Shown here one piece after another: positions 6,076 to 47,042 of a stretch of 64,000 bases of DNA (position 1 is the first letter of the stretch; every line of letters starts with the position of its first letter). Location: NCBI GenBank assembly GCA_902798825.1, contig CADBYI010000008.1, positions 207-64,206 on the forward strand. Reading direction: 5' to 3'. Under the pieces are notes generated by a model. The model ran no database searches. It was not told the origin of the DNA and saw only the letters and a list, made by a program, of their open reading frames with translations. The translations under genes and the position numbers were made by a program. The DNA comes from an uncultured Eubacteriales bacterium (GTDB lineage: Bacteria; Bacillota; Clostridia; Christensenellales; CAG-138).

Positions 6076-6097
6076 CAGGTGATAGATATACAGAGGC

Positions 6098-8950: not shown

Positions 8951-8959
8951 GAGAGAGAG

Positions 8960-10357: not shown

Positions 10358-11031
10358 TCATCGAGCTGGAGCACATCGAAAAGACCTATGGGACGGGCGC
10401 CAACAAGGTGCCGGTCCTGCATGACGTGAATTTGCAGGTGGAGAACGGGGAATATATCGCCATCATGGGGCCCTCCGGCTCCGGGAAGAGCACCCTCATG
10501 AACATATTGGGCTATCTGGACGTGCCCACGGCCGGCACCTACCGGTTCGACGGACAGGACAACACCAAGGCCGGGGACGCCCGCATGGCCCGCATCCGAA
10601 ACGAAAAGATCGGGTTCGTCTTTCAAAGCTTTCATCTGATGCAGCGGCGCCGGGCCTGGGAGAACGTGGCCCTGCCCCTGATGTACGGAAACGTGCGCCG
10701 GGGCGAGCGCAAGCGCCGGGCCGAGGAGGCCCTCCGGCAGGTGGGGCTGGAGGATCGGATCAGCTTCTATCCCGGCCAGCTGTCCGGCGGCCAGTGCCAG
10801 CGGGTGGCCATCGCCCGGGCCATCTGCACCCGGCCCAAGCTCCTGTTGGCCGACGAGCCCACCGGAGCCCTTGATTCCAAAGCCGGACAGCAGATCATGG
10901 ACATCTTCGACGAGCTACACGATCAGGGCATGACCATCGTCATGATCACCCACGAACATGCCGTGGCGGAGCGGGCCCGGCGGATACTCTACATCTACGA
11001 CGGGTGGTTGAGAGAGGAGGCCCAGGCATGA
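10354..11031 (+). CDS. ABC transporter ATP-binding protein (MacB/LolD/FtsE-type)
   Basis: Walker [10 protein letters not shown], signature [14 protein letters not shown], Walker [14 protein letters not shown]-loop ITHE. Confidence 0.9.
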
Positions 11032-12872: not shown

Positions 12873-12912
12873 CGTGATGAAAAACACCGTTTTTCAAAAG
12901 GAGTGAATCGCT

Positions 12913-14163
12913 ATGCTGGAAAACCTGCGGGAAGCCTTTGACGGCATATGGTCCCATAAGCTCAGGAGCACCCTGACCATGCTGGGCATCATCATCGGCA
13001 TCGCCTCCATCATCGCCATCTCCTCCACCATCATGGGCACCAACGAGCAGATCAAGCAGAATCTGGTGGGCGCGGGCAACAACACCGTGGAGGTGGCCCT
13101 CTATCAGGGGGATTACGTTCTGGACCCCAGCTACCAGCAGGTGCCGGAGTATGTGACGCCCCTGGACAGCTCCATCCTGCCCGAGATCACGAAGATCCCC
13201 CAGGTGGAGGACGCCTCCCTGTTCTTCCGCCGGGACGCCTACGGCATGATCTGGTATGGCACCGAGGGCTTGAACCAGGGATCGATCTACGGGGTGGACG
13301 AGCATTTCCTGTCCGTCAACGGGTATGTGATCCGCAGCGGACGCGGCTTTCTGCCCGAGGATTTCAAGGCGTTTCGGAAGGTGGCCCTGATCGATCGGAC
13401 CGTGTCCGAGACCCTGTTCATGGGCAAAAACCCCATCAACGAGACCATCGAGATCTCCTCTGAGCCCTATGTGGTGGTGGGCGAATTCACCCAGAACAGC
13501 GCCTTCACCCCCACCATCACCTCCATCGACGACTACTTCACCTACACCGACCACTCCGGCGGCAAGGTGCTGGTCCCCGCCTCCACCTGGCCCACCCTGT
13601 TCGCCTATGACCAGCCCAGCTCCGTGCTGGTTCGGGCGGGCAGCACCGACGAGATGACCGAGGCCGGGAAACAGACCGCCGCCGTCCTCAACCGGACCCT
13701 GATCGGCAGCGGGGACGTGACCTATAAGAGCAAGGATCTGCTGGAGCAGGCCAAGCAGCTTCAGGAGCTGTCCTCCGCCACCAATCGACAGCTCATCTGG
13801 ATCGCCAGCATCTCCCTGCTGGTGGGCGGCATCGGCGTCATGAACATCATGCTGGTATCCGTCACCGAGCGGACCCCGGAGATCGGCCTCAAAAAGGCCC
13901 TGGGGGCCCGCAAGCGCCGCATCTCCAGCCAGTTCTTGACCGAGGCCGGCGTGCTCACCTGCATCGGCGGCATTCTGGGCATCCTGGTGGGCATCGGCCT
14001 TGCCTATATGGTCAGCCGGGTCTCGGGCGTGCCCATCTTCATCAGCTGGTACATCGTGGCCGCCACGGTGGTCTTCTCCTTCGTGGTGGGGCTCTTCTTC
14101 GGCGCCGTGCCCGCGGTGCAGGCGGCGCGGCTGAACCCCATCGACGCGTTGAGGAGAGAATGA
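12913..14163 (+). CDS. ABC transporter permease, MacB/FtsX family
   Basis: N-terminus LRSTLTMLGIIIGIASII, a large extracytoplasmic domain, and a C-terminal FtsX-type 3-TM bundle (ISLLVGGIGVMNIMLVSVTERTPEIG). Confidence 0.9.
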   Translation: MLENLREAFDGIWSHKLRSTLTMLGIIIGIASIIAISSTIMGTNEQIKQNLVGAGNNTVEVALYQGDYVLDPSYQQVPEYVTPLDSSILPEITKIPQVEDASLFFRRDAYGMIWYGTEGLNQGSIYGVDEHFLSVNGYVIRSGRGFLPEDFKAFRKVALIDRTVSETLFMGKNPINETIEISSEPYVVVGEFTQNSAFTPTITSIDDYFTYTDHSGGKVLVPASTWPTLFAYDQPSSVLVRAGSTDEMTEAGKQTAAVLNRTLIGSGDVTYKSKDLLEQAKQLQELSSATNRQLIWIASISLLVGGIGVMNIMLVSVTERTPEIGLKKALGARKRRISSQFLTEAGVLTCIGGILGILVGIGLAYMVSRVSGVPIFISWYIVAATVVFSFVVGLFFGAVPAVQAARLNPIDALRRE

Positions 14164-14185
14164 TCCCCATTGAGTGCACAAAAAA

Positions 14186-14220
14186 ATGCCCCCTTTCCGG
14201 AAAGGAAGGGGGCATACTTT
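14186..14220. terminator. intrinsic terminator (between convergent genes)
   Basis: Hairpin atgccccctttcc-ggaa-aggaagggggcat, flanked by an A-run upstream and a T-rich run downstream. Confidence 0.75.
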
Positions 14221-14257
14221 TATCTTATCAAGGGTTTCTCCGAAAAAGAGGTTTCGT

Positions 14258-14635
14258 TTATTGAGCCTCGGCGATGGCCTCCACCTCCACCATGACGCCC
14301 TTGGGCAGGGTCTTCACCGCCACGCAGGAGCGGGCGGGGCAATCTCCGGTGAAGTATTTGGCGTATACGCCGTTGAAGGCGGCAAAATTGCCCATGTCGG
14401 ACAGGAAGCAGGTGGTCTTGACGACGGTGGACAGGGAGGCGCCGCCGGCCTCCAAAACGGCCTGCAGGTTCTTCAGCGCCTGCTCGCTCTGCTCCTCGAT
14501 GGTCTCGCCCACGATGGCGCCGGTGCCCGGGTCCAGGGGGATCTGGCCGGACGTGAACACCAGCTTGCCGCTCACCATGCCCTGGCTGTAGGGCCCGATG
14601 GCCCCGGGGGCGTTGCTCGTTTCAATCTTTTTCAT
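14258..14635 (-). CDS. ridA: RidA family reactive-intermediate deaminase
   Basis: 125 aa. SNAPGAIGPYSQG and later CFLSDMGNFAAFNGVYAKYF and PARSCVAV are typical of YjgF/RidA. Confidence 0.9.
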   Translation of the reverse strand: MKKIETSNAPGAIGPYSQGMVSGKLVFTSGQIPLDPGTGAIVGETIEEQSEQALKNLQAVLEAGGASLSTVVKTTCFLSDMGNFAAFNGVYAKYFTGDCPARSCVAVKTLPKGVMVEVEAIAEAQ

Positions 14636-17685: not shown

Positions 17686-18696
17686 TTATTGGAGCCGCCG
17701 GATGGCCCGCTCCACGGCCTCCCGTCCCTCGCCGCCGACGATGCCCCACTCCTCCCGCATGAGACGCAGGACTTCCCGATAGGCTTCCACGGCGCCGGCT
17801 TTGTCGCCCTGGATCTCCCGGATGTGGGCGATGCACATGGCGCCATCGGTAAACTTGGGGGACGCTTGGAGCGCCAGACCCTTCTTGTACAGATCGACGG
17901 CCTTGTCATACTCCTGCCGCTGGGTGTAGATATCCCCCAGGACCAGGGACAGGCACCAGTCGTCCTCCAGGGCTTCCAGCTCTTTTAGCCGCTCATCCGC
18001 CTCGCCCTTACCTTCGGCCAGGGCGATTAAGTATCGATACATGGGGGTGCGGAAGGTGCTGTCGATGGCTGCCAGCTTTCCCAGCCAATTCTTGGCTTCG
18101 GTGAGGCGGCGGTCGTCGATCAGGTTGTCCAGCAGCCACATAATGGCGGCCCGGTTCTCGGGGTTCTTCTGGCAATACTCGCTGAGCCATTCGATGAGGG
18201 CGTGGTGGTTGCGCATGTTCCAGTCGGGGATGTAGCTGCCCCAGGCGTTGCACAGCTCGCTGATGGCGTCGGAATCTCCCTTCGTCTCCTCCACGGCCGT
18301 CTTGCCGTGCTCCACCGCCAGCAGCCGATACTGCTCGGCCTGGTTGTTGTATAGCTTGGCCAGCAGCAGCTCCGCCTGGCCCTTCAGCTCCGGCTTCTCC
18401 CCGAAGGCCCGCAGCTGCGCCTCCAGCTGCCGCTGCTCCGCCTCGTCGAAGAGACCCCTGTCGTAGATGCGGTTTTCGATCCGATCCATCTGCTGCTCCG
18501 GCGTCATGGCGAAGAGCTGGTCGATGCTGACGCCGAAGTATACGGCGATCTGGGGCAGCATCTGCACGTCCGGCACGCTGTTGCCGCACTCCCACTTGCT
18601 CACCGTCTGGGCGGTCACGTTCAGGGCCGCCGCCAGTCCCTCCTGGGTCAGGCCCCGATCCTGCCGCAGGCGGCGTATTTCCTTGCCCATTTCCAT
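17686..18696 (-). CDS. XRE-family HTH transcriptional regulator with TPR-like C-terminal domain
   Basis: N-terminus IRRLRQDRGLTQEGLAAALNVTAQTVSKWECG is a classic XRE HTH. About 270 aa of helical-repeat region follow. Confidence 0.85.
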   Translation of the reverse strand: MEMGKEIRRLRQDRGLTQEGLAAALNVTAQTVSKWECGNSVPDVQMLPQIAVYFGVSIDQLFAMTPEQQMDRIENRIYDRGLFDEAEQRQLEAQLRAFGEKPELKGQAELLLAKLYNNQAEQYRLLAVEHGKTAVEETKGDSDAISELCNAWGSYIPDWNMRNHHALIEWLSEYCQKNPENRAAIMWLLDNLIDDRRLTEAKNWLGKLAAIDSTFRTPMYRYLIALAEGKGEADERLKELEALEDDWCLSLVLGDIYTQRQEYDKAVDLYKKGLALQASPKFTDGAMCIAHIREIQGDKAGAVEAYREVLRLMREEWGIVGGEGREAVERAIRRLQ

Positions 18697-30455: not shown

Positions 30456-31079
30456 TTACATCTCCTGGGCTTCCTTGGCGAGGACAGCCTTCTCCTCTTC
30501 GGGCGTCAGGTAGGCGGAGGGGGCGGGCTTGACGCCGCGGGCCCACTCGATCCAGTTGACCACGAAGAAGGTGACCACGGACACCAGGCAGCCGAACACC
30601 ACGGGCATCAGGATGACGCTGTTGCCGAAGGCATTCCAAAGCAGGAAGCCGGCGGTACCGGTGATGATGGAGAACAGGCCGGAGTTCTTGGTGGCCCGGG
30701 GCACCACAAGGCCCAGAGCGTAGGCCGCGAAGGGACCCGCGCAGCGGATGCCGAAGGCGAAGGTGTTCAGGGCGATGATGCTGCCGGCGATGCCGAGAAG
30801 CTGGATGGCCATGGCGATGAGGGCGCCGATGACATTGCAGAACCGGGTCCAGAAGATGATCTGACGCTCAGACAGCTCCTTCTTGCCGCCAAAGCCCTTG
30901 TACAGGTCGTTCATGATCATGGTGGACATGCACAGCAGGTTGGAGTCGGCAGAGGACATGGTGGCGCAGATGATGGCCGCGGACACCAAACCGGTGATGA
31001 AGCCGGGGGCATAGGCGCCGGTGACGGTCATCATGGAGTTGGCAGCGGTGACGCCGGGCAGCTGATCCTGTTTTTCACA
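30456..31079 (-). pseudogene. sodium:solute symporter family gene, 5'-truncated (C-terminal ~200 codons only)
   Basis: The reading frame has about 5 TM helices and an SSADS-type motif (CATMSSADSNLLC) typical of the SSS family. The frame is closed by a stop at about 31080 and abuts an AT-rich stretch, so no N-terminal half is present. Confidence 0.65.
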
Positions 31080-34928: not shown

Positions 34929-34970
34929 GCCATCTTTGAAGAATACTGGGTTTTTCGGCAGATTTTGGCC

Positions 34971-35150
34971 CTATTTGTTGCCCTTGGCCCGATTGTGGGT
35001 TTTGCAGAGCATCTGGCAGTTGGCGGCGTCCGTGGCCCCGCCATGGCTCCATGCCGTCACATGGTCGGCGTCCATCTCGTTCATGCGGTAGATGCGCTTG
35101 GCGTTGTTGTCGTGGCCGATGGCGCAGAAGGGGCAGTTGGAAACGCCCTT
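34971..35150 (-). pseudogene. HNH endonuclease domain remnant (C-terminal ~58 codons)
   Basis: Minus-strand frame reads KGVSNCPFCAIGHDNNAKRIYRMNEMDADHVTAWSHGGATDAANCQMLCKTHNRAKGNK-stop. This is a classic CxxC...DH...N...C..HN HNH motif, cut off upstream by an in-frame stop at 35151-35153. It is too short to appear in the ORF track. Confidence 0.75.
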
Positions 35151-35200
35151 CTACATGCTCCTGGCCCATACTATTTACTAAGGGTAGCTGTACGCCCGAT

Positions 35201-36244
35201 TCAAGCAAACGGTTCTCTTTCAGGGGCGATATATATGATATCGCTGATGCCGCGCCCACCCGGACTGGACGGCACATTATACACTTCACCCTGCCAAACC
35301 ATGACGGCGGAATTCCCGCCGTCCAGGTTGAAAGCCGCGGCAAAGCCCATGTTCTCCGCAAATTTGGCCAGATCGCTGATGTCTAGCCCTCGTGAGTTGT
35401 GAATCTGCCGGCCATCGATAAGGCAGAGAGCATAGTGGCCTGGCTCATAGTATCCCAAGATACAGCGTGGATTGTTCTGATTGGCGCTTACTCCCAGATA
35501 CAGCCCTTTCTTTGCCTTCCCCGATTCGTCTAGCAGGCCTGGTCCGAAGTTGAACACCTGCCAAATGTCCTGAGAAAGAAGCGCTTCCACTGTATACTCA
35601 TCCTCCGTGAAGGTTCTCATAGATCCATCCCGATACAGAACGCAGATATTTCGTTTGGGCTTTTGCTGAAAGTAGGTAATACCATTTCGTATCACTATGC
35701 CATTGTTCACAGCGCAGTAATCGCCGGAGACCGCCAAAATGGCGCCATACTTTTGTGCCATATCTCCCACCTTAGCAGTTAAGGGAGAGGTAAAGTCCGG
35801 GCCAGCTGAACCTGTTTTGAGCAGCGTCACGTCCTGCAAATAGATATCCGCCACATGATAATCAATACTGCCCTTGTAGCTGGTTTTATCGGAAGCATGA
35901 TATACCCGAATGCACACATGTTCGCTGCTGTATTCATTATCCGTGATTCTTTCTCCCGTATACGAGAAGCCATCGAAGCGACCGCCCAGTAATCCCTCTG
36001 GCGTTGGTTCTATCGTAGGTTCCGGCGTGGGCGTGGGCTGATATGTACACGTTGGTCCTGGCGTAAGGGCCGAAATATATATGGTTTGCAGTGGTGCTGT
36101 GATGGCAGAGGGGGTGGTAGGCTGCAAAATCAGAGTAGCTGTCGCTTGTGCCTCTCGCGAAGCGGGAGAATATCGATCAAAGCAAGCCCAAAGCCATAGC
36201 AGAGAGCACAGGAGAAAGCCAAGCAACCATATATTTTTGCGCAT
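35201..36244 (-). CDS. phosphodiester glycosidase family lipoprotein (DUF2233/NAGPA-like)
   Basis: Start at MRKNIWLLGFLLCSLLWLWAC (lipobox). The C-terminal AAFNLDGGNSAVMVWQGEVYN motif is typical of the family. G+C is visibly lower than in the flanks. Confidence 0.75.
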   Translation of the reverse strand: MRKNIWLLGFLLCSLLWLWACFDRYSPASREAQATATLILQPTTPSAITAPLQTIYISALTPGPTCTYQPTPTPEPTIEPTPEGLLGGRFDGFSYTGERITDNEYSSEHVCIRVYHASDKTSYKGSIDYHVADIYLQDVTLLKTGSAGPDFTSPLTAKVGDMAQKYGAILAVSGDYCAVNNGIVIRNGITYFQQKPKRNICVLYRDGSMRTFTEDEYTVEALLSQDIWQVFNFGPGLLDESGKAKKGLYLGVSANQNNPRCILGYYEPGHYALCLIDGRQIHNSRGLDISDLAKFAENMGFAAAFNLDGGNSAVMVWQGEVYNVPSSPGGRGISDIIYIAPEREPFA

Positions 36245-36330
36245 GTATCGACTGCCTCCTCTGGTTTGTTTGGTATCCAGCCGCCGATTCATTCTTCCCA
36301 CCTCTTCTTTTGCTTTTCAGTCGACCACTG

Positions 36331-36355
36331 TCAATAAGCACACCTTTGATAACCG
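36331..36355. repeat. left arm of imperfect inverted repeat (IR-L)
   Basis: tcaataagcacacctttgataaccg versus the reverse complement of 36461-36486, tcataaggtacaccttttgataaacg. About 22 matched positions, 2-3 single-base indels, and a shared core ACACCTTT(T)GATAA. Confidence 0.6.
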
Positions 36356-36368
36356 TATCTGATTATTT

Positions 36369-36397
36369 ATTATACAAAGAAAAAGCATTTTAATCAA
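36369..36397 (-). promoter_or_regulatory. near-consensus sigma-70 promoter facing the glycosidase gene, located between IR-L and IR-R
   Basis: On the minus strand: TTGATT, 17-nt spacer (aaaatgctttttctttg), TATAAT. Confidence 0.6.
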
Positions 36398-36460
36398 CGC
36401 CAAAATGCCTTGATAAGCAAGCTAACAGGACTTCTGTTATCCTTAATGCCCAGAAAACGA

Positions 36461-36486
36461 CGTTTATCAAAAGGTGTACCTTATGA
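36461..36486. repeat. right arm of imperfect inverted repeat (IR-R)
   Basis: See IR-L. It lies 7 nt beyond the recombinase stop codon. Confidence 0.6.
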
Positions 36487-36492
36487 CAGCCG

Positions 36493-37125
<633 letters not shown>

Positions 37126-37134
37126 TTATACAAC

Positions 37135-37162
37135 GGGCGGCCGAAACGCCTTTCGACCGCCC
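37135..37162. other. 28-nt imperfect palindrome between the recombinase start and the iteron region
   Basis: gggcggccgaaa-cgcc-tttcgaccgccc (12-nt arms, one G:T position). Confidence 0.6.
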
Positions 37163-37214
37163 AACTGTCTTTTTGCATATTCATTCCGGCCATGGCGGGG
37201 TGAATACTCGCATA

Positions 37215-37407: not shown

Positions 37408-37439
37408 AAAAAACGGCGCGTATATCCCCTTCATACGCC
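37408..37439 (-). terminator. intrinsic terminator ending the phage structural operon
   Basis: On the minus strand: gcgtat-gaaggggat-atacgc, then gccgTTTTTTcg, 15 nt after the stop of the 253-aa gene. Confidence 0.65.
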
Positions 37440-37453
37440 CTGTTTGGGGCCGG

Positions 37454-38215
37454 TCATTTCGCGGTCCGCTTCCGGAAGCTGTCCAGCTGGCTGGATGTAT
37501 ACGAGCCGTTCATCTGTCCCCGCAGCTTCACGTACTTGGGCAGATCGCTGGTGGTCACCCGCTTCACGGTCTCCCTGTCCCCGCCGGCGTAGAAAGCCGG
37601 GCCGTTGGGGTTCGCCTGAAGCTGGCCCCGGGCCGCGGCCACCGCCTGGGCCAGGGACGTCTTGGTGCTGGCTCCGTCGGTTTTCTCCTGCTTGGCCCCG
37701 CCGCCGCCCCTCGACCGCTTGGCCTCCTCGGCCGCCTTGGCTTCCAAATATGCGTCATACAGGGTCTTGGCGGCCGAAAACGCCTGCTCCAGCGACTCGC
37801 TTCGCTGCTGGGCGTTGAACTTTTCCGCCTCGAACTGTCGGCTCCGCTCCCCCTCCATGGCCTTGTACAGTTGATCGGCCAGCTCGGCGCCGTATTCGCT
37901 TTCCAGCTCCCGGGCGTCGTCCGCCGCGGCGTTGTCCTGCCGCCGCTTGACGTCGGTCACAAAGGTGCTGCTGCCCATGCCCCGGGAGATGGCGTCCGCG
38001 TCCAGCTCCGCGTCCTGCCGCCGATTGCCCCGGAAGATGGCGGAAATGGCCCTCTCGTATACGGGCCGCAGCACCGCGCTGATCCGCTCCGCCAACGTCT
38101 TTTCGTCCAGGGGCGTGTAGTTCACAAGCTGGGGGGCGTGCTCCCGCTTCGTCTTCTCGAAGATGGTCTCGAAGGCCTCGTTGCCATAGTAGTTCTGCTT
38201 TTCCTGCTCGGTCAT
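37454..38215 (-). CDS. phage structural-operon protein, function unknown (central coiled-coil-like, Gly-rich segment)
   Basis: 253 aa, last gene of the operon, with a helical acidic/Ala-rich middle region. In position and size it resembles a podoviral tail needle/plug, but no sequence motif was recognised. Confidence 0.6.
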   Translation of the reverse strand: MTEQEKQNYYGNEAFETIFEKTKREHAPQLVNYTPLDEKTLAERISAVLRPVYERAISAIFRGNRRQDAELDADAISRGMGSSTFVTDVKRRQDNAAADDARELESEYGAELADQLYKAMEGERSRQFEAEKFNAQQRSESLEQAFSAAKTLYDAYLEAKAAEEAKRSRGGGGAKQEKTDGASTKTSLAQAVAAARGQLQANPNGPAFYAGGDRETVKRVTTSDLPKYVKLRGQMNGSYTSSQLDSFRKRTAK

Positions 38216-38224
38216 GTTTCTCTC

Positions 38225-38413
38225 CTATTCTCCTCTCGCCGCCAGGGCCGCTTCCAGCTCCAGCAGCTTGTTGTACAGGATCGACAGATCCTGATTCAGG
38301 TTGTTCTCGTTCTGGGCGATGCGGCTGTTGACCGCCTCCAGATCCGCCTCGTGGTCTGCCCGCTCCAGATACACCGGGAAAAGGGCCATGAGCCCCGTCG
38401 CCTCATACTGCAT
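38225..38413 (-). CDS. small phage protein, coiled-coil-like
   Basis: 62 aa with RBS aaaggagaa. Its stop is 9 nt before the next start. Confidence 0.55.
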   Translation of the reverse strand: MQYEATGLMALFPVYLERADHEADLEAVNSRIAQNENNLNQDLSILYNKLLELEAALAARGE

Positions 38414-38543
38414 TTCGTTCTCCTTTCCGGGGATGTCAAGAAAGCGTAGCAGGAGTCGCGTTCTTCGCCTTTAAGCTGTGCAGTAGAATACAACTGCCAT
38501 CTGCTGCATATGTCCTGCTGCCTGTATCGACATCCCCATGTCC

Positions 38544-39977
38544 TTACAGCACCCGCCGCTGCTCGTCGAACAGCAACTCCACCCCGCCGGACACGTCGAA
38601 GTCGCTGCCCGACACGTTCTCGATCCGAAGCTTCAGCCGCCGGCCCATGCTGCGCAGGGGGAACTCCGTGGGCCGATCCGCCCCGGTGAGCAGGGCCACG
38701 CTGTCCCCCTCCCGGGTTTCCCCCAGGACGTAGATTTTCAGCGGGCCGCCGGTGCCGGTGAGCACCGCCTCCACGGTCTGCTTCACGGTCAAGGCCGATG
38801 CCCCGTCCAACCAAGGGGTCTCCCAGAAGGCCTCGATGGGCTCGCCGCCATAGGTGGTTCCCTGGTTCAGGACGGCCACCTCTCCCCCGCCCGTCAGAAT
38901 ATAGAGGGTGCCGTAGCAGCTGGCGATGTCCACGGTCTCGAACCCCCGCCTGAGCAGGAAGCAGTCCCGCACCACGTCGTACTCGATGAGCAGGTCGTTG
39001 TGGACGCTGCTCCCGTTCTCCTTCACCGCAAAGTACAGGGTGTCCCCGCAGGCGGCGGAGGCCGCCGCCGAAAAGTCCACCTGGGAGAGCAGGGGCAGCA
39101 GGTCCGCCCCGTGGGCCGTCCGGCGAACGGTCTGGCCGTCATAGAAGTACAGGCCCCGATCCGTCAGGAAGAACAGCCTGTCCCCATAGAGCACGCAGGC
39201 CGTGTGGATGGGCTGGGCCAGGGCCGCCTCCACGGGCACGATCCGATAGTTCCCCGGCCGATCGCCCAGGAGCCGATAGAGCTTGTCCCGCTTGAAGATC
39301 AGCAGCTGGTTCGACATGGCGAAGAGCCCGGTGATGGGGTCCGAATCCGTCCCCACCTCCACGTGGCCGCCGGACACGTTCTCGCTGCTCTCGTCGGCGG
39401 ACCAGTCCTCGATGGTCCGCCCGTCGCCGGGGGCCTGGCTCCAATAGAGCCGGGCAGGGTGCTCAGGGTCCCCGGCGGCAAAGAGGCGGCCGAAGTACAG
39501 CTCCAGGAAGTTCACCGCCTTGTCGGACAGCCCCTGGCTGGAGCCGAAGGCGGCGACGGAGGCGGTGCCCCCCTCCCACTTGAGGATGGATTCCAATCCG
39601 CTGCCCACCAGCAGCGTCTCCGTGCTGCCGATCTTCGTCTTGAGAAAGTCGAAGATATCCGCGTCCATATCGTCGGTGTAGTGGTAGATGTCCAGCCACG
39701 CGTCCGTGCCCCTGTCGTAGCGGAAGAGGGAGTCCTCCCGGGCCACCAGGCAGTCCATGGACCCGTTCTCCCGGGGCCAGATGAACAGCCGGCGAAGCTT
39801 CCGGGCCAATCCCGGCACCGCAGGATAGAGGGGCTGATAGCCCTTGACCCGGCCCAGCTTTCCGCCCACGGTGGTCACGTTTTGGGCGTTCTCCGCCCAG
39901 TTGAGGGGGACCGCGCCCGCGCAGGCCCCCTGCTTCACCCCGGCGAAGCTGCCGAGGCGGATCGTTTCCAATGCCAT
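38544..39977 (-). CDS. phage structural protein with repeated beta-strand motifs (possible tail hub/nozzle)
   Basis: 477 aa with RBS gaggagg. Recurrent LFxxxDxGLYFYDG-type motifs (SLFRYDRG, RLFAAGD, LLIFKRDKLYRL, RLFFLTDRGLYFYDG, TLYFAVKENG, TLYILTGGG) suggest a beta-propeller. Confidence 0.6.
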   Translation of the reverse strand: MALETIRLGSFAGVKQGACAGAVPLNWAENAQNVTTVGGKLGRVKGYQPLYPAVPGLARKLRRLFIWPRENGSMDCLVAREDSLFRYDRGTDAWLDIYHYTDDMDADIFDFLKTKIGSTETLLVGSGLESILKWEGGTASVAAFGSSQGLSDKAVNFLELYFGRLFAAGDPEHPARLYWSQAPGDGRTIEDWSADESSENVSGGHVEVGTDSDPITGLFAMSNQLLIFKRDKLYRLLGDRPGNYRIVPVEAALAQPIHTACVLYGDRLFFLTDRGLYFYDGQTVRRTAHGADLLPLLSQVDFSAAASAACGDTLYFAVKENGSSVHNDLLIEYDVVRDCFLLRRGFETVDIASCYGTLYILTGGGEVAVLNQGTTYGGEPIEAFWETPWLDGASALTVKQTVEAVLTGTGGPLKIYVLGETREGDSVALLTGADRPTEFPLRSMGRRLKLRIENVSGSDFDVSGGVELLFDEQRRVL

Positions 39978-39987
39978 AGCGTCCTCC

Positions 39988-40533
39988 TCAATACAGGTTA
40001 TAGAACCGGGCCAGCGACGGGGCCGAATATCCCCGCTTCAGCCGCTGCTTCATCTCCCGATAGAGGGTCAAATCCAGCGAGGCCGCGCTCTGGGAGGCGG
40101 CGTCGAACCGGCTCCGTTCCCGGGCGGCGGCGTATTCCACCAGCAGCCCCTGCCAGAGCTCGGGCAGCTGGGGCTCGTCGCCCAGCTCCGTCAGCAGGGC
40201 GGGCTGATACCGATAGGTGATCTCCACCGTCCCCGTCTCCATACCAGGGAACCGAAGGATCTTCCGGCTGGAGCCGTAGTAGAACAGTCGGCGCTGGCCC
40301 TCGACGCTGGCGCCCAGGACCTTGAGGCAGGCACAGGGAAGGCCGCTTAGGTCCGCCTGTCCGTCAGCCACGGTCAGGCTGTCCCGCCGCCAGGGCCTGA
40401 ACTCCGCCGTAAGATCCAGCATGGCCTCGTTGAGATACCCCAAAAGCCGCTCCCTGTACAGGGCCACGGTGCCGTTGTCCATGGGCCGATCCAGCTTCCG
40501 CAGGGTCATTTCCATCAGTCTCTGCGTCGTCAT
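39988..40533 (-). CDS. phage protein, possible head-to-tail adaptor
   Basis: 181 aa, in the position after the capsid gene. The assignment rests on synteny and size only. Confidence 0.5.
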   Translation of the reverse strand: MTTQRLMEMTLRKLDRPMDNGTVALYRERLLGYLNEAMLDLTAEFRPWRRDSLTVADGQADLSGLPCACLKVLGASVEGQRRLFYYGSSRKILRFPGMETGTVEITYRYQPALLTELGDEPQLPELWQGLLVEYAAARERSRFDAASQSAASLDLTLYREMKQRLKRGYSAPSLARFYNLY

Positions 40534-40540
40534 AGGCCCC

Positions 40541-40765
40541 TCAGCTCAGCTTCTGCCCGCCGGCGGCGGTGAAGCCGTTCCTCCACTGCTCCGAGGCGGC
40601 GTCCTCCCGGCGGCTCTCCTCCAGCACCCGGTAGATGCGCAGCGGCACCTCCACCAGCACCCCCGTGGGGATGCGGAAGTTCAAGCCGTTCAGGGCGCCC
40701 TCCACGAAGGGTCCGTTCCCTGCCTCCGGCAGGATCATACGAATGGTCTCTTCCCTGTGTTCCAT
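40541..40765 (-). CDS. small phage protein
   Basis: 74 aa with RBS ggaaaggaagg, immediately after the capsid gene. Confidence 0.5.
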   Translation of the reverse strand: MEHREETIRMILPEAGNGPFVEGALNGLNFRIPTGVLVEVPLRIYRVLEESRREDAASEQWRNGFTAAGGQKLS

Positions 40766-40786
40766 AGGGTCCCTTCCTTTCCGTCC

Positions 40787-41998
40787 TTATGCGGACACGC
40801 AGTGCTCGATCTTCACGAGCCAGAGGGGGTTCAGGACCTTGGCGGTGTAGGCTGCCACCTTGGCGCCCACGGTGGACCGCTGATCCAGGGGGTCGGTGGT
40901 GCCGGCGGAGCCCAGAGGCTTGATGATGGTCTCCATGGCGCCGGACCCGGCCACGTCCACCACGCCGTAGGCGTCCGCGCCGAAGATCAGCGTGGCGTGC
41001 ACGTCGGGGGCCGTCTTGGTCACCTCGTCGATGGCGCCGCCGTCCTTGGAGTACACCACGGTGTCGGCGGTGAGGCTCACGGAGCTGGTCAGCTTCACGG
41101 TGCGGGTGGCCGCGGTGTAGGAGTTGGAGGCGGCCAGGGTATACTCGTTGCTGCCGATCATGATCTTGTTCCCGCCGGTGGACAGGTACGCCGCCTCCTT
41201 GGCGGAGGGGGACGTCTTCAGCACGAAGCTGGTGGAGGAGGTGGTGTTGGCGTTGACCGCGTTGTGGACGCTCTGGGAATAGACCTTGGCCTCCGTGGCC
41301 TCCACGAAGACCACCCCGAACAGGCGGCCGATCTCGCCGGAGTAGATCTGCTCCGCGTTGCTGTACTTGGACACGTCCTGCCAGAGGGGATCGTTCTGCA
41401 GATCGTAGGTGGCGTCGGGGGAGCAGATGCAGATGAAGTGGGGCTTGCGGCCGGAGCCGTCCATGGCGGACACGAAGGGCCGGGCCTTGTTCTTCTTCAG
41501 CGTCCGGACCGCCTTGCGGACCTCGTTCACGGTCAGCTTGTCGCTGGCGGTGAGGGCGCCCCGGCCCGCCGCGCTGTTGGCGTACTGGACGTTGGTGGTC
41601 TGGCACATGGCGTCCCGGGTGACCCACTCGATGACAGTGCCCAGCTGCTCACCCAGCAGCTCCGCGGAGTCGGCGATGACGGGATCGTAGCTGGTCATCT
41701 CCAACAGGTCGGAGATCTCCACGAAGGCACCGTACTGCTTCACCTCGGCCTCCACCTTGGACTGGGTCAGGTTCTGGCCCGTGGGGGTCACGCCCTCCAC
41801 CAGGGTCAGGGCGTTGGTGTCGGGGGTGAACAGGTTGTACTTGCGGAACTCCACCCGCTTGCCGTTGTTCTTGGGGATGGAGCGCTTCTGGCCGAAGTTG
41901 GCATGGACGAACCGGGTCTTGGCGGTGTCCAGGAGCTTGCGGTCATAGAAGGTCTTGTTGAAATAGGTGCTGGCTGCGGTAGAAACGGTGGTATTCAT
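40787..41998 (-). CDS. major capsid protein, N4-gp56 family (HK97 fold)
   Basis: 403 aa. N-terminus YFNKTFYDRKLLDTAKTRFVHANFGQKRSIPKNNGKRVEFRKYNLF ... VEGVTPTGQNL ... QYGAFVEISDLL matches the family pattern. RBS aaggagg. Confidence 0.8.
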   Translation of the reverse strand: MNTTVSTAASTYFNKTFYDRKLLDTAKTRFVHANFGQKRSIPKNNGKRVEFRKYNLFTPDTNALTLVEGVTPTGQNLTQSKVEAEVKQYGAFVEISDLLEMTSYDPVIADSAELLGEQLGTVIEWVTRDAMCQTTNVQYANSAAGRGALTASDKLTVNEVRKAVRTLKKNKARPFVSAMDGSGRKPHFICICSPDATYDLQNDPLWQDVSKYSNAEQIYSGEIGRLFGVVFVEATEAKVYSQSVHNAVNANTTSSTSFVLKTSPSAKEAAYLSTGGNKIMIGSNEYTLAASNSYTAATRTVKLTSSVSLTADTVVYSKDGGAIDEVTKTAPDVHATLIFGADAYGVVDVAGSGAMETIIKPLGSAGTTDPLDQRSTVGAKVAAYTAKVLNPLWLVKIEHCVSA

Positions 41999-42019
41999 TT
42001 CATATCCTCCTTAAAGCGT

Positions 42020-42403
42020 TTATGCGTGGTTTCTCAAACGGTTCTCCAGGGCGCGAAAGGCCTCCGGGCTCATGGCGGCGTAGTCCTCCTCGGCGCTGAG
42101 CAGTCGGTTGCTGCGGGTGGGCTGGGGGAGCTTGCGCCGGTCCATGGCCTCCCGCCGGACCTCCTCCCGGGCCGCTTCCCGGGCGGTTTCGGCCGCCCGC
42201 TCCGCGGCGTAGACCCGAATGGCCCCATAGGGCTCCAGCTCCTGCAACAGCTCGACGAACCGATCGTCGTCACAGGCTGCCTCCAGGTCAAAGCCCTCGG
42301 GCAGCTTCCCCTCCGCCTCCAGCTGGGCGATCTGCTCGCCCATGGCGCGATAGGGATTCTCTTCCATCATGGTCTCTTTCATGGTTTCCTCCCATTCATT
42401 CAT
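42020..42403 (-). CDS. scaffolding-like protein (acidic, helical)
   Basis: 127 aa, Glu/Ala-rich, between the portal and capsid genes. It overlaps the portal stop by 8 nt. Confidence 0.5.
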   Translation of the reverse strand: MNEWEETMKETMMEENPYRAMGEQIAQLEAEGKLPEGFDLEAACDDDRFVELLQELEPYGAIRVYAAERAAETAREAAREEVRREAMDRRKLPQPTRSNRLLSAEEDYAAMSPEAFRALENRLRNHA

Positions 42404-43958
42404 TGTCGTTTTTCATGCTTTTGATCACCTGGTCCTTCCCCTCGAAGTGCATGAGCTCCACGGCCCGCTTCGCATCGATGGCCCCCGCTTGCACCAGCTG
42501 TAAGATCAGCTCATTTTGGGCGGATGCGGAAAACGGGTCCTGTTTGGCCGCCTTGACCGAGATGAAGAACTCCATGGGCAGGCCCTCTGCCCCCTTGTCC
42601 CGGCGCGTGAGCAAGTCGCTGTCAAAGAGCTCCTGCCGCTCCTCCCCGTCCACCACGACGGTGACGGGCCGAAGGAAGAAGGTGAACTCCCGTTCCACCT
42701 CGATCTCCATGCGCACCGCCTGCCGAAAGGCCTCGTAGAGCCGGGCGGTGGCCATGCGGGCCCGCTTGGTGCTGGCGATCTGCAGGGCCTGGATGGCGCT
42801 GGCCGCCGTGACGCCCTGTCGGAAGTTCCCCCGGGAGGAGTCGTTGGCGCCGCTCTCCTCCTTGATGTCCTCGCGGATGCGCTGGATATAGGTCATGAGG
42901 TAGGCCGGCAGCGGCGGCGTGGAGAACCAGGTGACGCCGTTCAGACTCTCGCCCCGGTGGACCTCCTTGGACCAGTCCTTCAGGTCCTCCTCGTCGAAGC
43001 CGGAGGCCTCGGTGACCAGGAGCTTGTTGTGGCTGGCCATGAAGGCGTTCTTCAGCACGATCTGGTCCAGCTTGTCCGCATACCGCTGCTGTTTCTCGAA
43101 CAGATCCACGATGCCGAAACCCAGGGCGCTGCCCTTGCGCATGTACAGTGGGGTCAGGATAAAGGGGTACATGCCGTGGGCATAGTAGCCCTGTGGCTTC
43201 AGTTCGCGGCTGTCCGCCAGCACCACGCCCCCGGCGATGAGAGCCATGTGGACCGCGAACACGCCCTCCCGCTCCGTCGGCGTCTTCCACCAGTATTCCA
43301 GGAGCAGCACGCTGTTGCGCCTGTCCCCCCTCAGGATGTCGTCCGCCGGGGCGTCGGCGGCGGCGTAGGGGTCCTCCCCCATCTGGGCGTACTTCTCCGG
43401 GTACCGGTCCTTGAACCACTCCCGGGTCCGAAGGGACAGCTTGAACACCGCCCGGCCCTCCTGCATATCGTCGCACAGGGGGTCGAAGAGGATGCTTCGA
43501 TCGTCCACGTGCCGGATGAACGCGCCGCCCAAGCCGTCGTTCAGCGACGGGTCGTAGCCCACCTCCTGAACGCAATAGCCGCCCACCAGCAGATCGTGGA
43601 TCAGCTTCTGATACTCCACCGTGTACGCCGACACGTCGTGGTTCCGGCGGATCAGGGCCTCCACCACCTTCGCCACATACCCGTCCGCCCCGGCTTCGGG
43701 CCGGATGTGGGCCTCCGGGGCCTGGTCCATGAGATCGGCGCTCACGTTCTCCACGGTGGACTGGATGATGGGTGTCACGGGCCGGGGCTCGTTTTCGTCC
43801 GTCACCGGCACGTCGTACCAGTGGTCTCCCCGGTAGATCCGCTCGTTGTTCTCGAGGCGCAGCCACTCCTGTCGATAGGCGCTGCGGAACTCGTCGAACA
43901 GCCGATAGGCCCTTTCGCACAGCTGCCGGGACGCTTCCTTTTCGTTGGTTCGCTCCAT
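42396..43958 (-). CDS. phage portal protein
   Basis: 520 aa, in the position after terL. N-terminal RLENNERIYRGDHW-type motif, plus size typical of portals. Confidence 0.75.
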   Translation of the reverse strand: MERTNEKEASRQLCERAYRLFDEFRSAYRQEWLRLENNERIYRGDHWYDVPVTDENEPRPVTPIIQSTVENVSADLMDQAPEAHIRPEAGADGYVAKVVEALIRRNHDVSAYTVEYQKLIHDLLVGGYCVQEVGYDPSLNDGLGGAFIRHVDDRSILFDPLCDDMQEGRAVFKLSLRTREWFKDRYPEKYAQMGEDPYAAADAPADDILRGDRRNSVLLLEYWWKTPTEREGVFAVHMALIAGGVVLADSRELKPQGYYAHGMYPFILTPLYMRKGSALGFGIVDLFEKQQRYADKLDQIVLKNAFMASHNKLLVTEASGFDEEDLKDWSKEVHRGESLNGVTWFSTPPLPAYLMTYIQRIREDIKEESGANDSSRGNFRQGVTAASAIQALQIASTKRARMATARLYEAFRQAVRMEIEVEREFTFFLRPVTVVVDGEERQELFDSDLLTRRDKGAEGLPMEFFISVKAAKQDPFSASAQNELILQLVQAGAIDAKRAVELMHFEGKDQVIKSMKNDNE

Positions 43959-43978
43959 ATTTCCTTCCTTTCCATTCC

Positions 43979-45313
43979 TTATAGGCTTCTGAACCCCTCG
44001 CCCATCGCCCTTGGCGCGGCAAAGGGATCGTAGGCGGGCGGACCCTTGCGCACCGGCTCCAGGGGCTTGGGATGGCGGCTCATGACGGCGTATCGCAGGG
44101 CCTCCGGGGCATGATCCTCACAGGTGTCGCTCACGTCCTCGTGGTCGTGCTCGTCATAGGTGAGCAGGGGCAACGTCCGGATGAGCTCGGTGCACTGGGG
44201 GAAGATCACGAGGCCGGGCCGCCCGTCCGCCTGGGGGGCCAGGGCCTCCCGCAGCCGCTGCCAGCCGTGGATGCGCCGGTTGTCCGCCGGCAGCAGGGGC
44301 ACCCCGTTTCGGGCGAACACGTCGGCGATGCAGTCCCCCTCCGCCCCGGGAAGACCCCGCTGCTGCCAGGCGTCGGGGCTGGCCACGGTGTAGGCGATCT
44401 TCTCGCCCACCGACAGCTCCCGCACCTTCTGGGCCACCCGGCTGGACAGGGTCTCGGTGACGTACAGCTCCCGATAGACGATGAGCTGCCCCTCGGGGCT
44501 CACCGCCGCCCACAGCACGCAGCAGGGGTCCTTGTAGCCCCAGTCCATGGCCCGAAACCGCCGCCACCAGCCGGGAAGGGGAAAGGGCTCCGGCACATGG
44601 ACCTGCCGGGAGAACTCCGGGAAGTACCGGCCGGACAGCACGTCCCAGTCCCCGTCCAGATACGCCCGCCGCAGGTGCTCCGGCAGGCGCTGCAGCGTCC
44701 GAAGGTACCCTGGGTCCCGTTCCATGAGCACCGCGTTGTCCGTCAGCCGGGCGGGGATGAAGGCATAGTCCTCCGGCCGCTCCCCCTCGCCATAGCGCCG
44801 GTCGATGAACAGCCGCTTGACCCATTCGTGGCCCGGGCCGCCGGGGTTGCAGGTGTAGTACATCCGGGGGGAGAAGTCCGTGCGCACGGACCGGTTGCAG
44901 GTGGTGAGAAAGGTCATCTGGCTCTCGGTGAAGTGAGTTGCCTCCTCCATGCCGATCACGTCGTATTCCTGCCCCTGGTACTGATACACGTCCTTCTCCT
45001 GGTCGCAGTAGCCCAGCTTGATCCGGGACCCGTTGGGAAACAGGAAGCACCGCTGGGTCTGGTTGTACTTCACCGTCCCGGAAAGCTCCGCCAGCAGCGG
45101 CCGCACGTGGTTCTCCTGGAGCTCCGGCAGCGTCCGGCGCAGGAGCAGCTCCTGCAGCCCCGGATACCGGAGGGCCAACAGCACCAGCTTCCGCCGCATG
45201 GCCCAGCTCTTGCCGCCGCCCCGGGCGCCGCCATAGGCGGTGTGGGGGGCCGTGGAGAGGAAGAAGGCCCTCTGCTTGGGGTTGGGACGGCCCGTGAGGT
45301 GCAGGGTCTTCAT
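43979..45313 (-). CDS. terminase large subunit
   Basis: Start at MKTLHLTGRPNPKQRAFF (ATG 45313). Walker A YGGARGGGKSW, and a nuclease-domain DWG motif (AMDWGYKDP). The 144-codon Gly/Pro-rich extension in the ORF track overlaps terS and is rejected. Confidence 0.85.
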   Translation of the reverse strand: MKTLHLTGRPNPKQRAFFLSTAPHTAYGGARGGGKSWAMRRKLVLLALRYPGLQELLLRRTLPELQENHVRPLLAELSGTVKYNQTQRCFLFPNGSRIKLGYCDQEKDVYQYQGQEYDVIGMEEATHFTESQMTFLTTCNRSVRTDFSPRMYYTCNPGGPGHEWVKRLFIDRRYGEGERPEDYAFIPARLTDNAVLMERDPGYLRTLQRLPEHLRRAYLDGDWDVLSGRYFPEFSRQVHVPEPFPLPGWWRRFRAMDWGYKDPCCVLWAAVSPEGQLIVYRELYVTETLSSRVAQKVRELSVGEKIAYTVASPDAWQQRGLPGAEGDCIADVFARNGVPLLPADNRRIHGWQRLREALAPQADGRPGLVIFPQCTELIRTLPLLTYDEHDHEDVSDTCEDHAPEALRYAVMSRHPKPLEPVRKGPPAYDPFAAPRAMGEGFRSL

Positions 45314-45708
45314 TGGCTGTACGCCTCCGCTTCCCCGTCCAGGACGACCCGAAGAGGCTCCATGGCTTCCTCCTCCGCGCCATCCGTCAGCCCCAGCTCC
45401 TTCAGGGCCGCCTGGGCCATGGTGGCGTTCAACTCCCCCAGCAGGGCCCGCTCCTGCAGATACCCCGCCACCCGGACCAGGCCCCGCATCAGGATCGGCC
45501 CCTCCCCCTGGCCCCGGCCGTGGGCCGCCAGAAGGACCTCCTGGGGGGACAGGGATACCGCCGCGCTCAGGCCATAGAGGGTGTAGGGGATCTGTCTCTC
45601 CGCGAATCCGCCTCCCTTTTGCGGGACCCGTTCCCTGGTCCCGTCGCATTGGGCAAAATACGCCCTCACGGCTGCCTCCATCCGCTTTGCGCTCATCCGC
45701 CTGCCCAT
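45310..45708 (-). CDS. terminase small subunit (putative)
   Basis: Start at MGRRMSAKRMEAAVRAYF, with strong RBS ggaaaggagg 8 nt upstream. It overlaps the terL start (ATGA). The assignment rests on position and N-terminal HTH-like features. Confidence 0.6.
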   Translation of the reverse strand: MGRRMSAKRMEAAVRAYFAQCDGTRERVPQKGGGFAERQIPYTLYGLSAAVSLSPQEVLLAAHGRGQGEGPILMRGLVRVAGYLQERALLGELNATMAQAALKELGLTDGAEEEAMEPLRVVLDGEAEAYSQ

Positions 45709-45800
45709 GGTCCTTGCCTCCTTTCCCTTTCGGCGAGAAAAGCATACAACCAAACGGGCAGCCGTGCGTCCGATAATTTGTTCATATTTGTTCACAAAGA

Positions 45801-45826
45801 AAGCCGGGCCCTTCGTTGCCCGGCTT
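45801..45826 (-). terminator. terminator-like hairpin immediately 5' of the terS leader
   Basis: aagccgggc-ccttcgtt-gcccggctt; on the minus strand it is followed by tttctttgtg. Confidence 0.5.
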
Positions 45827-45854: not shown

Positions 45855-47042
45855 ATGAAACGTGCCTTTTCCCTGATCCTCATCCTGGTGCTGGCCCTCT
45901 CGCCCCTAAGCGTTCAGGGGGAGATCGAATCTTCGCCGGACCCGGCCATCCGCTTCATGCCGGAGGACAGCCTGCCGCTGCCCTCGGAAACCTATGCCCT
46001 CACCGAAAAGCGGCCCTTCGCCTTCGGCGGCACGGTGGTCTCCCTGGCGCCTTTGGTTCGGGTGTCCGTCGCCGTCACCGACGAGCAGGCCCAGATCCTG
46101 CTGCAGGAGGAGGCGACCTTTGACCCATCGGAGGACCCCGTCACCAGCTTCCCCCTGTGGGACAGGACCTACCCCTTCGCGGATGAAAGCCTGTCCGGCC
46201 GCATGGACTTTGCCTCCCTGGCACCGGGTCGATACACCTTCACCCTCCGGGCCGCCAGCGACGGCCAGGAGGTGACCCTCTATTCTTCCCCCTTCACCGT
46301 GGCCAAGGTCACGGACCTGCACACCCTGATGCCCAACGACCTGCGGGGCACCTATCTGTCGGCGGCGGCATACCTGGGGGAGGGCAATCTGCCCTTCACC
46401 TATCGGACCGGCACCTATAACCAGATACGGATCGACAACGCCTGGGTGGGCCGCAACATCGTGGAGATCAACACCCCCTTCGACGCCCCCTGGCGGGTGA
46501 ACCGGGCCGCTGTGGAGCCCTTTGAGCGGGCCATCTCCTATCTGCGCCACACCTACGTCCATGTGGGCGGCAAATGGGATTCCAACATCCTGCGCCTAAG
46601 CTTCCTGGTGGCCGCCTACAACGGCCCCTACTATGCCCGGCAGGAGGAGAACACCCCCTTCCTGAGCCCCCACGTGCTGGGCCTGGCGGTGGACTTGAAC
46701 CACAGCATAGGCCCCAACGAGCCGGCGCCGGACAATTGGGACATCTTCTGCAAGGAGATCAGCGAAAATCTGATCTACAACGGCATCAAAACCAAGGACG
46801 GCCGCCAGTATTACGATTTTACCTACATCGGCAACTGGGGCACGGAGTATCAGCGGGTGCCCACCGTCATCCAAAACTATCTGCTCTACGAGCTGGCCTT
46901 CTTCCGGGCCGGGTTCTTCTGGGGGGTCTACTACGACCACACCTGCGACGCCAGCCATTTCGGTCTGGGGGAATACGACCCCGCCGTCCACACCGACTCC
47001 CCCCTGGCCCTAAGAAAGGTCTTCGAATACATCGACGACTGA
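45855..47042 (+). CDS. secreted protein with C-terminal LAS/M15-type (VanY-like) metallopeptidase domain
   Basis: Signal peptide MKRAFSLILILVLALSPLSVQG. SPHVLGLAVDLN (H-x6-D) and a later DASHFGLGE are consistent with a zinc D,D- or L,D-peptidase. Confidence 0.65.
   Translation: MKRAFSLILILVLALSPLSVQGEIESSPDPAIRFMPEDSLPLPSETYALTEKRPFAFGGTVVSLAPLVRVSVAVTDEQAQILLQEEATFDPSEDPVTSFPLWDRTYPFADESLSGRMDFASLAPGRYTFTLRAASDGQEVTLYSSPFTVAKVTDLHTLMPNDLRGTYLSAAAYLGEGNLPFTYRTGTYNQIRIDNAWVGRNIVEINTPFDAPWRVNRAAVEPFERAISYLRHTYVHVGGKWDSNILRLSFLVAAYNGPYYARQEENTPFLSPHVLGLAVDLNHSIGPNEPAPDNWDIFCKEISENLIYNGIKTKDGRQYYDFTYIGNWGTEYQRVPTVIQNYLLYELAFFRAGFFWGVYYDHTCDASHFGLGEYDPAVHTDSPLALRKVFEYIDD

Follow-up and report, generated by a model that had tools for sequence, protein, structure and literature searches.

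The window analysed here is a stretch of 64,000 nucleotides (nt) from the chromosome of an uncultured rumen bacterium of the order Christensenellales (GenBank assembly GCA_902798825.1, contig CADBYI010000008.1, positions 207 to 64,206). It contains a module of ten phage-like genes, 8.3 kb in size, which begins with the gene for a small terminase (terS) and codes for packaging, head and neck proteins. We consider it likely that this module is the head-neck part ("operon I") of a domesticated, podovirus-derived element that resembles gene transfer agents (GTAs). Its features are listed in Table 1.

The ten open reading frames (ORFs) are intact, tightly packed and located on the minus strand, spanning 37454-45708. 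The intergenic spacing is -4 to 21 nt, the exception being a distance of 130 nt 5' of gene 9. This noncoding gap (38414-38543) separates the nozzle gene from the gene for the 62-aa protein; most relatives have 15-70 nt there. A purine-rich, Shine-Dalgarno-like sequence precedes the start of each of the ten genes. The GC content of the module is 65.7%, versus 62.8% in the rest of the window, and its GC content at third codon positions (GC3) is host-like, being as high as in the adjoining host genes. The first-pass annotation, made from the sequence alone, had reported intact, tightly packed ORFs with ribosome-binding sites and host-like GC, and all of this was confirmed. The hairpin downstream of gene 10 is to be read with the caveat that terminator-like matches are no more common across the module region than in shuffled sequence.

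Table 1. Genes of the module and adjoining features, with positions in the window and the supporting evidence.
Feature	Position	Strand	Length (aa)	Evidence
Gene 1, small terminase (TerS)	45310-45708	-	132	Pfam PF16677 GP3_package 3.8e-7
Gene 2, large terminase (TerL)	43979-45313	-	444	Terminase_6N 8e-13; Terminase_3 1e-10; phrog_979 1e-51
Gene 3, portal	42396-43958	-	520	P22_portal (PF16510) 2e-23, 83 bits; SU10_portal 7e-12; phrog_156 7e-48
Gene 4, acidic helical protein at scaffold position	42020-42382	-	120	Position and composition only
Gene 5, major capsid protein (MCP), N4-gp56 family, HK97 fold class	40787-41998	-	403	NCBIfam TIGR04387 3.1e-74
Gene 6	40541-40765	-	74	Sole family match weak: phrog_15239 1.7e-4
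Gene 7, head-to-tail adaptor	39988-40533	-	181	Pfam PF24175 SU10_adaptor 2e-9, 38.6 bits versus 27-bit cut-off
Gene 8, tail nozzle/hub with beta-propeller	38544-39977	-	477	AlphaFold2 model and Foldseek
Gene 9, predicted coiled-coil tail	38225-38413	-	62	Conserved position and size, 59-70 aa across loci
Gene 10, helical protein	37454-38215	-	253	Conserved N-terminal core, Gly-rich linker, variable C-terminus
Terminator-like hairpin, 7-bp stem, then GCCGTTTTTT T-run	37418-37438	-		16 nt past gene 10 stop
Upstream control region	45769-45826	-		T-run hairpin 45826-45803; conserved 18-mer TATGAACAAATTATCGGA 45786-45769

Family and fold assignments (Pfam, PHROGs, NCBIfam, AlphaFold2/Foldseek) reach seven of the ten genes. 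For TerS, the GP3_package match is borderline (30.7 bits versus a cut-off of 29.4 bits), and family profile scans detected no helix-turn-helix (HTH) domain in the 132-aa protein. Its start is the ATG behind GGAAAGGAGG; a 161-aa form with a GTG start was rejected as an over-extension. In metagenome contigs, a gene for 130-133 aa is called 5' of terL. TerL itself is 61-93% identical across Christensenellales loci with a complete or largely complete gene. The MCP assignment is strong (250 bits for TIGR04387 versus a cut-off of 60), with additional matches to phrog_1357 (2e-70) and Phage_capsid_3, and the protein is 38% identical to the capsid proteins of the Bacillus podophages Page and Pascal. 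Pfam and NCBIfam scans gave no match of the capsid and adaptor proteins to the P22 coat (gp5) or gp4 families. The product of gene 4, which has no family match in Pfam, PHROG and NCBIfam scans, is called scaffold-like by position and composition only. Gene 6 is present at the same position in nearly all related loci and possibly codes for a head completion or decoration protein.

The first-pass annotation had proposed that the 181-aa protein is an adaptor and the 477-aa protein a tail hub with propeller-like repeats. The former holds by its Pfam match, and across 28 diverse loci the adaptor keeps a length of 179-183 aa. For the 477-aa protein, Pfam and NCBIfam gave no family and PHROG only weak matches. 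Its AlphaFold2 model, based on 31 homologues, has a predicted local distance difference test (pLDDT) value of 87.8 and a predicted template modelling score (pTM) of 0.89. When this model was compared to the PDB with Foldseek, the top matches were all podophage nozzle or hub proteins, with generic beta-propellers ranking lower. The best match is to Pa223 (9nwi_Y; E 6e-23, template modelling (TM) score 0.81), further top matches are to VP1 (8zkk_O), SU10 and T7 gp12, and the list includes P22 gp10 (8eap_D; E 2e-15, TM 0.65/0.66) and Sf6 gp8 (7sg7_S; E 4e-13). As far as the predicted fold goes, the identification as a tail nozzle or hub with a propeller is thus confirmed.

A third proposal, that the 253-aa product of gene 10 corresponds to the P22 gp26 needle, found no support. 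The homologues share the invariant motif LRPxY...DADAxxRGMGxS, and the AlphaFold2 model is a long helical hairpin (residues 38-168, pLDDT >83). There is no significant PDB match by sequence profile, Foldseek gives nothing at E <0.1, and gp26 chains are absent from the Foldseek list; the protein was modelled as a monomer, which may under-represent a trimeric fibre. Matches to chains of the T7 ejected complex are weak (E about 1) and were not taken as evidence. Gene 10 nevertheless likely codes for a virion component. Its positional counterpart in FpGTA I, an element of Faecalibacterium prausnitzii that is compared below, is the 'TolA'-annotated RCH50844, which ranks third in abundance among the proteins of purified particles (PMC12946183, Suppl. 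Data 2). For gene 9, scans of Pfam, PHROG and NCBIfam gave no family match. Recognisable DNA-delivery (ejection) proteins were not found in the module with Pfam, PHROG and Foldseek.

Conservation among relatives and phage ancestry

The nozzle has 398 relatives in the databases, and among the best 120 of these 398, the identity is 45-99% and full-length proteins have 473-480 aa. Chromosomal contigs, the largest of 1.3 Mb, encode many of the relatives. When one genome per GTDB species was scanned, relatives were detected in at least 146 species-representative genomes. We fetched 79 of these loci, almost all of which are labelled Christensenellales, Christensenellaceae or Clostridia, and seven of the fetched loci lie on chromosome-level records of 2.9-3.9 Mb. 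The named members in three cluster look-ups are likewise all from uncultured Clostridia, Christensenellales, Bacillota or Eubacteriales.

When the ten proteins from the window were used as tblastn queries, the ten genes were found to be collinear in essentially every locus that is long enough. The exceptions are one locus with a deletion and four otherwise complete clusters in which the small gene 6 was missed. Each genome has a single module locus among the loci fetched. In the locus with the deletion (L068, JBDKRF010000239.1), terS and terL are directly followed by genes 6-10, the genes for portal, scaffold and capsid being gone. This is either a real deletion in a decayed copy or an assembly artefact of a metagenome-assembled genome (MAG).

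The flanks, which were examined for about 80 loci, consist of ordinary host genes and contain no gene for an integrase, excisionase, primase or other replication protein, repressor or lysis protein. Repeats resembling attachment (att) sites were not found to flank the module. The insertion site is clade-specific, being fixed within each clade. In about 25 species of one deep clade, the downstream neighbours are always DAGK, then a 384-aa protein, then CvpA, and many members of this clade also have the upstream neighbours holB, PSP1 and ferredoxin in common. The clade to which the window belongs, together with part of a second clade, adjoins uvrA-ispDF-S4.

For all ten genes, the ratio of nonsynonymous to synonymous substitution rates (dN/dS) is 0-0.65 by the Nei-Gojobori method, as computed against six relatives. 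Synonymous divergence of the module (dS 0.26-0.65 versus L015 and L020) is similar to the value for the flanking ispDF gene (0.47-0.59). For terL, portal, MCP and nozzle, the pairwise distances correlate with each other (r = 0.88-0.96), and therefore the module evolves as one unit. Judged by gene order and substitution patterns, these comparisons demonstrate that the module is vertically inherited, is under purifying selection and lacks autonomy genes.

One more distant genome shows a split arrangement (L121, positions 3373-14318 of an 801-kb contig with a GC content of 50%). There, the genes for the capsid, a 189-aa protein and a 62-aa protein lie on one strand and are followed by spoIIE-cdaA-ybbR. 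After ybbR come genes for a 90-aa protein, the adaptor, the nozzle, a 679-aa protein and a 289-aa protein (DUF7934), with uvrA located 4.5 kb beyond. The arrangement appears to represent domestication in a second, dispersed form.

Of the 24 IMG/VR loci with the nozzle family, most cover only a short part of the stand-alone module. The contigs L110, L112, L115 and L117, 20-37 kb in length, have the gene order of the module, with a nozzle identity of 36-44%, plus phage features. The 35-37-kb phage-like contigs have all or almost all module genes in conserved order, eight to nine of the ten being found by tblastn. The phage-like contigs carry recombination genes such as RusA, as well as DUF6291, giant ORFs of 1952-2934 aa and a gene for a fibre-like protein. 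Their shared proteins also differ. TerS has 156-289 aa with HTH and Terminase_2 domains; the proteins at the scaffold position have 266-298 aa, the similarity to gene 4 being confined to their C-terminal ~100 aa; and the nozzles often have 570-1019 aa. In a neighbour-joining (NJ) tree of terL and portal, the stand-alone modules are monophyletic and the phage-like contigs form successive sister groups. This topology and the differences in gene content fit one domestication event, in which the fibres, the giant protein and the lysis or early genes would have been lost, the scaffold shortened, and TerS exchanged or shortened.

Human-faecal contigs labelled "Bacteriophage sp." (MT83xxxx) were rejected as copies of the module. 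They have only terL, portal and MCP in common with it, at 26-44% identity and in other arrangements; one of them (L093) has additional weak matches to the nozzle and to gene 6.

Control region and genomic surroundings

The conserved 18-mer TATGAACAAATTATCGGA is located about 60 nt before the ATG of terS in the window. About 24 nt downstream of it is a -10-like box (TATGCT), which is followed by the 5' untranslated region (UTR) and the ribosome-binding site. All loci of the window clade with enough upstream sequence have the 18-mer at a fixed 468-475 nt 5' of the start of the terL match. With up to three mismatches, only two further matches exist in 3.8 Mb of related loci (both strands), one in L117 and the other at the common downstream position of L010/L017. 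A core, AATTATCG(G/T)A, with a TAnGnT box about 24 nt downstream, recurs in a distant Christensenellaceae clade, so that the motif is seen in the window and at equivalent positions of L012-L023 and L035-L089, which are deeply diverged clades. The Christensenellaceae clade has one or two copies of GAATTATCG(G/T)AA upstream of terS, a TTACGAT box at matching spacing, and a stem in the 5' UTR. This suggests a dedicated and old control site upstream of terS. The TATGAACAAATTATCGGA region is a putative promoter or operator, and AATTATCG(G/T)A may be an operator or an antitermination site. A T-run hairpin precedes the motif in the window although the upstream gene is divergent. A riboswitch or other known RNA upstream of terS was rejected, as there is no Rfam match at E <=1. 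A sigma-70 promoter for the operon was also discarded as there is no convincing minus-strand match upstream of terS.

The other large ORFs of the window are housekeeping genes by Pfam and PHROG scans (glycogen genes, ABC transporters, IspDF, UvrA and the glycine cleavage system). Exceptions are a resolvase and three proteins of the wall-hydrolase type (an M15 peptidase, an M23 peptidase and an SH3 protein). The early observation that no other phage modules are nearby was therefore borne out, and the scans gave neither a second phage-like operon nor a locus for fibres, receptor binding, holin or endolysin in the window. The resolvase, which had been listed as the only neighbouring phage-type gene, is not part of the element. 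It has 201 aa, is of the serine type, and is encoded together with a secreted NAGPA-family phosphodiester glycosidase on an insertion of 2.2 kb with a low GC content of 53% (34930-37170). The closest GTDB relative (L011) lacks this segment, and gene 10 directly adjoins an ABC transporter pair there, which places the recombinase outside the unit. In L023, an 82%-identical NAGPA gene is found beyond the other end of the module, between terS and the M15 peptidase gene; because of this, a small NAGPA/resolvase cassette seems to move around the locus.

The gene divergent from terS (45855-47042, plus strand) codes for a secreted 395-aa Peptidase_M15_4 protein (D-Ala-D-Ala carboxypeptidase, VanY-like). 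It adjoins the module only in the window clade, at 65-73% identity, and could be a lysis or wall-remodelling partner or a mere neighbour. Beside the ABC transporter pair, a 192-aa ORF (30456-31034, minus strand) matches only positions 289-406 of the 406-position profile for sodium:solute symporters (SSF) and appears to be a 3' gene fragment or a pseudogene. A 336-aa protein with HTH_3 and tetratricopeptide repeat (TPR) domains, with the architecture of an RRNPP/PlcR-like quorum-sensing regulator, is encoded about 20 kb from the module (17686-18696, minus strand).

Function of the element and alternatives

The first-pass annotation had left three candidates, a domesticated or GTA-like locus, a capsid-forming satellite and a truncated prophage. 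Domestication is strongly favoured over the other two by collinear conservation of the module in at least 146 species, by an insertion site that does not vary within a clade, by dN/dS values under 1, and by the fact that no integrase, replication or att features were found. Synteny and dN/dS had been suggested as a check, and both came out on the side of domestication. A complete prophage with these genes at the same site was not encountered; full phage-like relatives exist only as distant sister lineages and elsewhere. Two features that characterise GTAs are found in the window and in the relatives: the phage-like genes are chromosomal, code for structure and packaging and come without modules for replication, integration or lysogeny, and they are vertically inherited under purifying selection. 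The head-neck operon of a domesticated, podovirus-derived GTA-like element is accordingly the reading that we prefer, with good though not full confidence.

From the gene content we infer that particles form, that their capsids are small, that headful packaging is random, that a second locus exists and that DNA is transferred. The operon would be switched on in a subpopulation of cells by a host-controlled signal, probably through a regulator that binds AATTATCG(G/T)A upstream of terS. Portal, the short scaffold and the N4-gp56-type capsid protein would form small procapsids. The short TerS, in which no HTH was detected, and TerL would fill them by a headful mechanism with roughly random fragments of host DNA, none long enough to hold the complete element. 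Closure of the portal and formation of a stubby tail would fall to the SU10-type adaptor and the gp10-like nozzle, and genes 6, 9 and 10 would code for accessory virion proteins. Fibre or receptor-binding and lysis functions would be expected at one or more other loci, as in FpGTA II of Faecalibacterium. Released particles would bring host DNA to related cells.

Several points weigh against this reading. For the element in the window, particle production, random packaging and DNA transfer are deduced from its genes, and the match to FpGTA I is one of gene order and family labels only. No fibre, receptor-binding or lysis locus was found within the 64 kb of this genome. The TerS of the module is gp3-like, and since P22 gp3 acts as a sequence-specific TerS, nonspecific packaging does not follow from the sequence. 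Vertical inheritance is derived from synteny and dS, and strong codon bias depresses dS. The NJ trees carry no support values.

The particle may have been domesticated for a purpose other than transfer, which we regard as unlikely. It could kill or lyse cells in the manner of PBSX, serve to release DNA, or act as a structural decoy against podophages during infection. Conservation and purifying selection show usefulness only, not purpose, and the module has no recognisable ejection proteins. The intact state of the portal and of both terminase subunits, however, argues that DNA packaging is central, and podovirus heads without fibres are not known to kill. The authors of the FpGTA study leave a PBSX-like role possible; GTA-like packaging of host DNA (4.1 and 6.3 kb) was on the other hand seen for Christensenellaceae MAGs, with no gene cluster named (PMC12946183).

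Somewhat less probable still is a capsid-forming satellite or hijacker, which would build its own small capsids and neck, obtain fibres, ejection and lysis functions from a helper podophage residing in the same cell, for which the related 35-37-kb phages would be an example, and spread itself or host DNA. A 36.8-kb inducible prophage has been reported in a Christensenellales bacterium (PMC12946183). The module has no fibres, giant internal or ejection proteins or lysis genes, while related phage-like contigs do carry fibre-like and giant genes, and its scaffold is shorter than in related phages, as expected for small capsids. A satellite is hard to reconcile with flanks that contain no integrase, excisionase, primase or replication genes and no att repeats in the roughly 80 loci examined, with a site that is fixed across deep clades, with dS values similar to that of a host gene, and with a single locus per genome among those fetched.

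A truncated prophage remnant kept by chance, for which the clear podophage descent and the loss of portal, scaffold and MCP genes in L068 (so that decay can occur) might be cited, is effectively refuted by ten intact genes that are collinear in at least 146 species at 42-93% identity, by the invariant lengths of adaptor (179-183 aa) and nozzle (473-480 aa) among homologues, by dN/dS far below 1, and by a conserved motif in the promoter region.

Comparison with known systems

GTAs have long been known almost only from Alphaproteobacteria. The module resembles RcGTA in being a chromosomal, vertically inherited head and packaging operon under purifying selection, with no replication or integration genes and with a shortened TerS. 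Accessory genes at other loci and host regulation are features of RcGTA itself. RcGTA is siphovirus-like, with a tail tube, a tape measure and an HK97-type protease-capsid module, and its protein families and host phylum are unrelated. The module, in contrast, has a podovirus-like portal, adaptor and nozzle and no tail tube.

Among phages, P22, Sf6, SU10 and T7 provide the likeness, through a gp3-like TerS, a portal of the P22/SU10 family and an adaptor of the SU10 family. The nozzle has the fold of P22 gp10, Sf6 gp8 and T7 gp12 (TM 0.65-0.81 for the nozzle matches). The gene order terS-terL-portal-scaffold-capsid-adaptor-hub is that of a P22-type late operon. The module had first been described as P22-like, and this stands for the layout, TerS, portal and hub. 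It does not extend to the capsid, which is of the N4-gp56 type and not gp5, to the SU10-type adaptor, or to a gp26-like needle, ejection proteins and a tailspike, none of which was found; in addition, the module lies outside a phage genome. Page and Pascal (Pagevirus) have the closest capsid among named phages (38% identity). These phages, like the related 35-37-kb IMG/VR contigs, have full phage genomes, which in Page include tail fibres, lysis and replication genes and regulators. Capsid-forming phage-inducible chromosomal islands (cf-PICIs) share with the module their own terminase, portal, capsid and connectors and the lack of tails. These satellites differ in carrying an integrase, regulators, replication genes and att flanks and in occupying variable sites, none of which was found here.

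FpGTA I of F. prausnitzii (RCH50844-RCH50853) is a ten-ORF operon of 10.5 kb (PMC12946183, Nat Commun 2026). It begins with TerS, and its proteomics labels are large terminase (RCH50852), portal (RCH50851), unknown (RCH50850), N4-gp56 capsid (RCH50849), unknown (RCH50848), adaptor (RCH50847) and tail nozzle (RCH50846, PDB 8eap), while the ORF between the nozzle and the 'TolA' protein was not detected in particles (PMC12946183, Suppl. Data 2). The particles are about 40 nm in size and hold 8.4-8.9 kb of random host DNA, and a second operon, FpGTA II, encodes fibres and lysis genes (PMC12946183). Besides this study, the paper library that was searched gave no literature linking GTAs with this gene set. 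The module agrees with FpGTA I position by position, with TerS, TerL, portal, a small protein, an N4-gp56 capsid, a small protein, an adaptor, a P22-gp10-like nozzle, a small protein, and a charged helical protein as the last one. Both occur in Gram-positive gut or rumen anaerobes of the class Clostridia, and neither has autonomy genes. FpGTA is near-ubiquitous within Faecalibacterium, and the module is widespread across an order. The differences are in size (8.3 kb versus 10.5 kb), in the host (Christensenellales versus Oscillospirales) and in the position-4 protein, which gives no Prp-family match here. For FpGTA, particles, their proteome and packaged DNA have been seen, whereas the module is known from its genes.

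Christensenellaceae are among the most heritable and health-associated gut taxa and are abundant in the rumen. It is tempting to speculate, with about equal weight for and against, that a single ancient domestication of a temperate podophage gave rise to an order-wide, ten-gene GTA head-neck operon in Christensenellales with its own AATTATCG(G/T)A site, and that this operon is the source of the 4-6-kb host-DNA particles of Christensenellaceae in human gut viromes. The locus is in any case a concrete, order-wide candidate for the GTA-like packaging that has been seen in Christensenellaceae without genes (PMC12946183). Its gene boundaries are defined, it has a putative control site, and its phage sister lineages indicate what would have been lost upon domestication. 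Built-in gene exchange would affect how Christensenellaceae genomes, and virome data attributed to "bacterial contamination", are to be read, and other Clostridia can be searched for such elements with the ten-gene set as a compact model. If the speculation on a single ancient domestication is true, podovirus-derived GTAs would, together with FpGTA, be general and old among gut and rumen Clostridia and not a peculiarity of Faecalibacterium. The locus is best explained as adding another bacterial order to the kind of element that FpGTA has recently defined.

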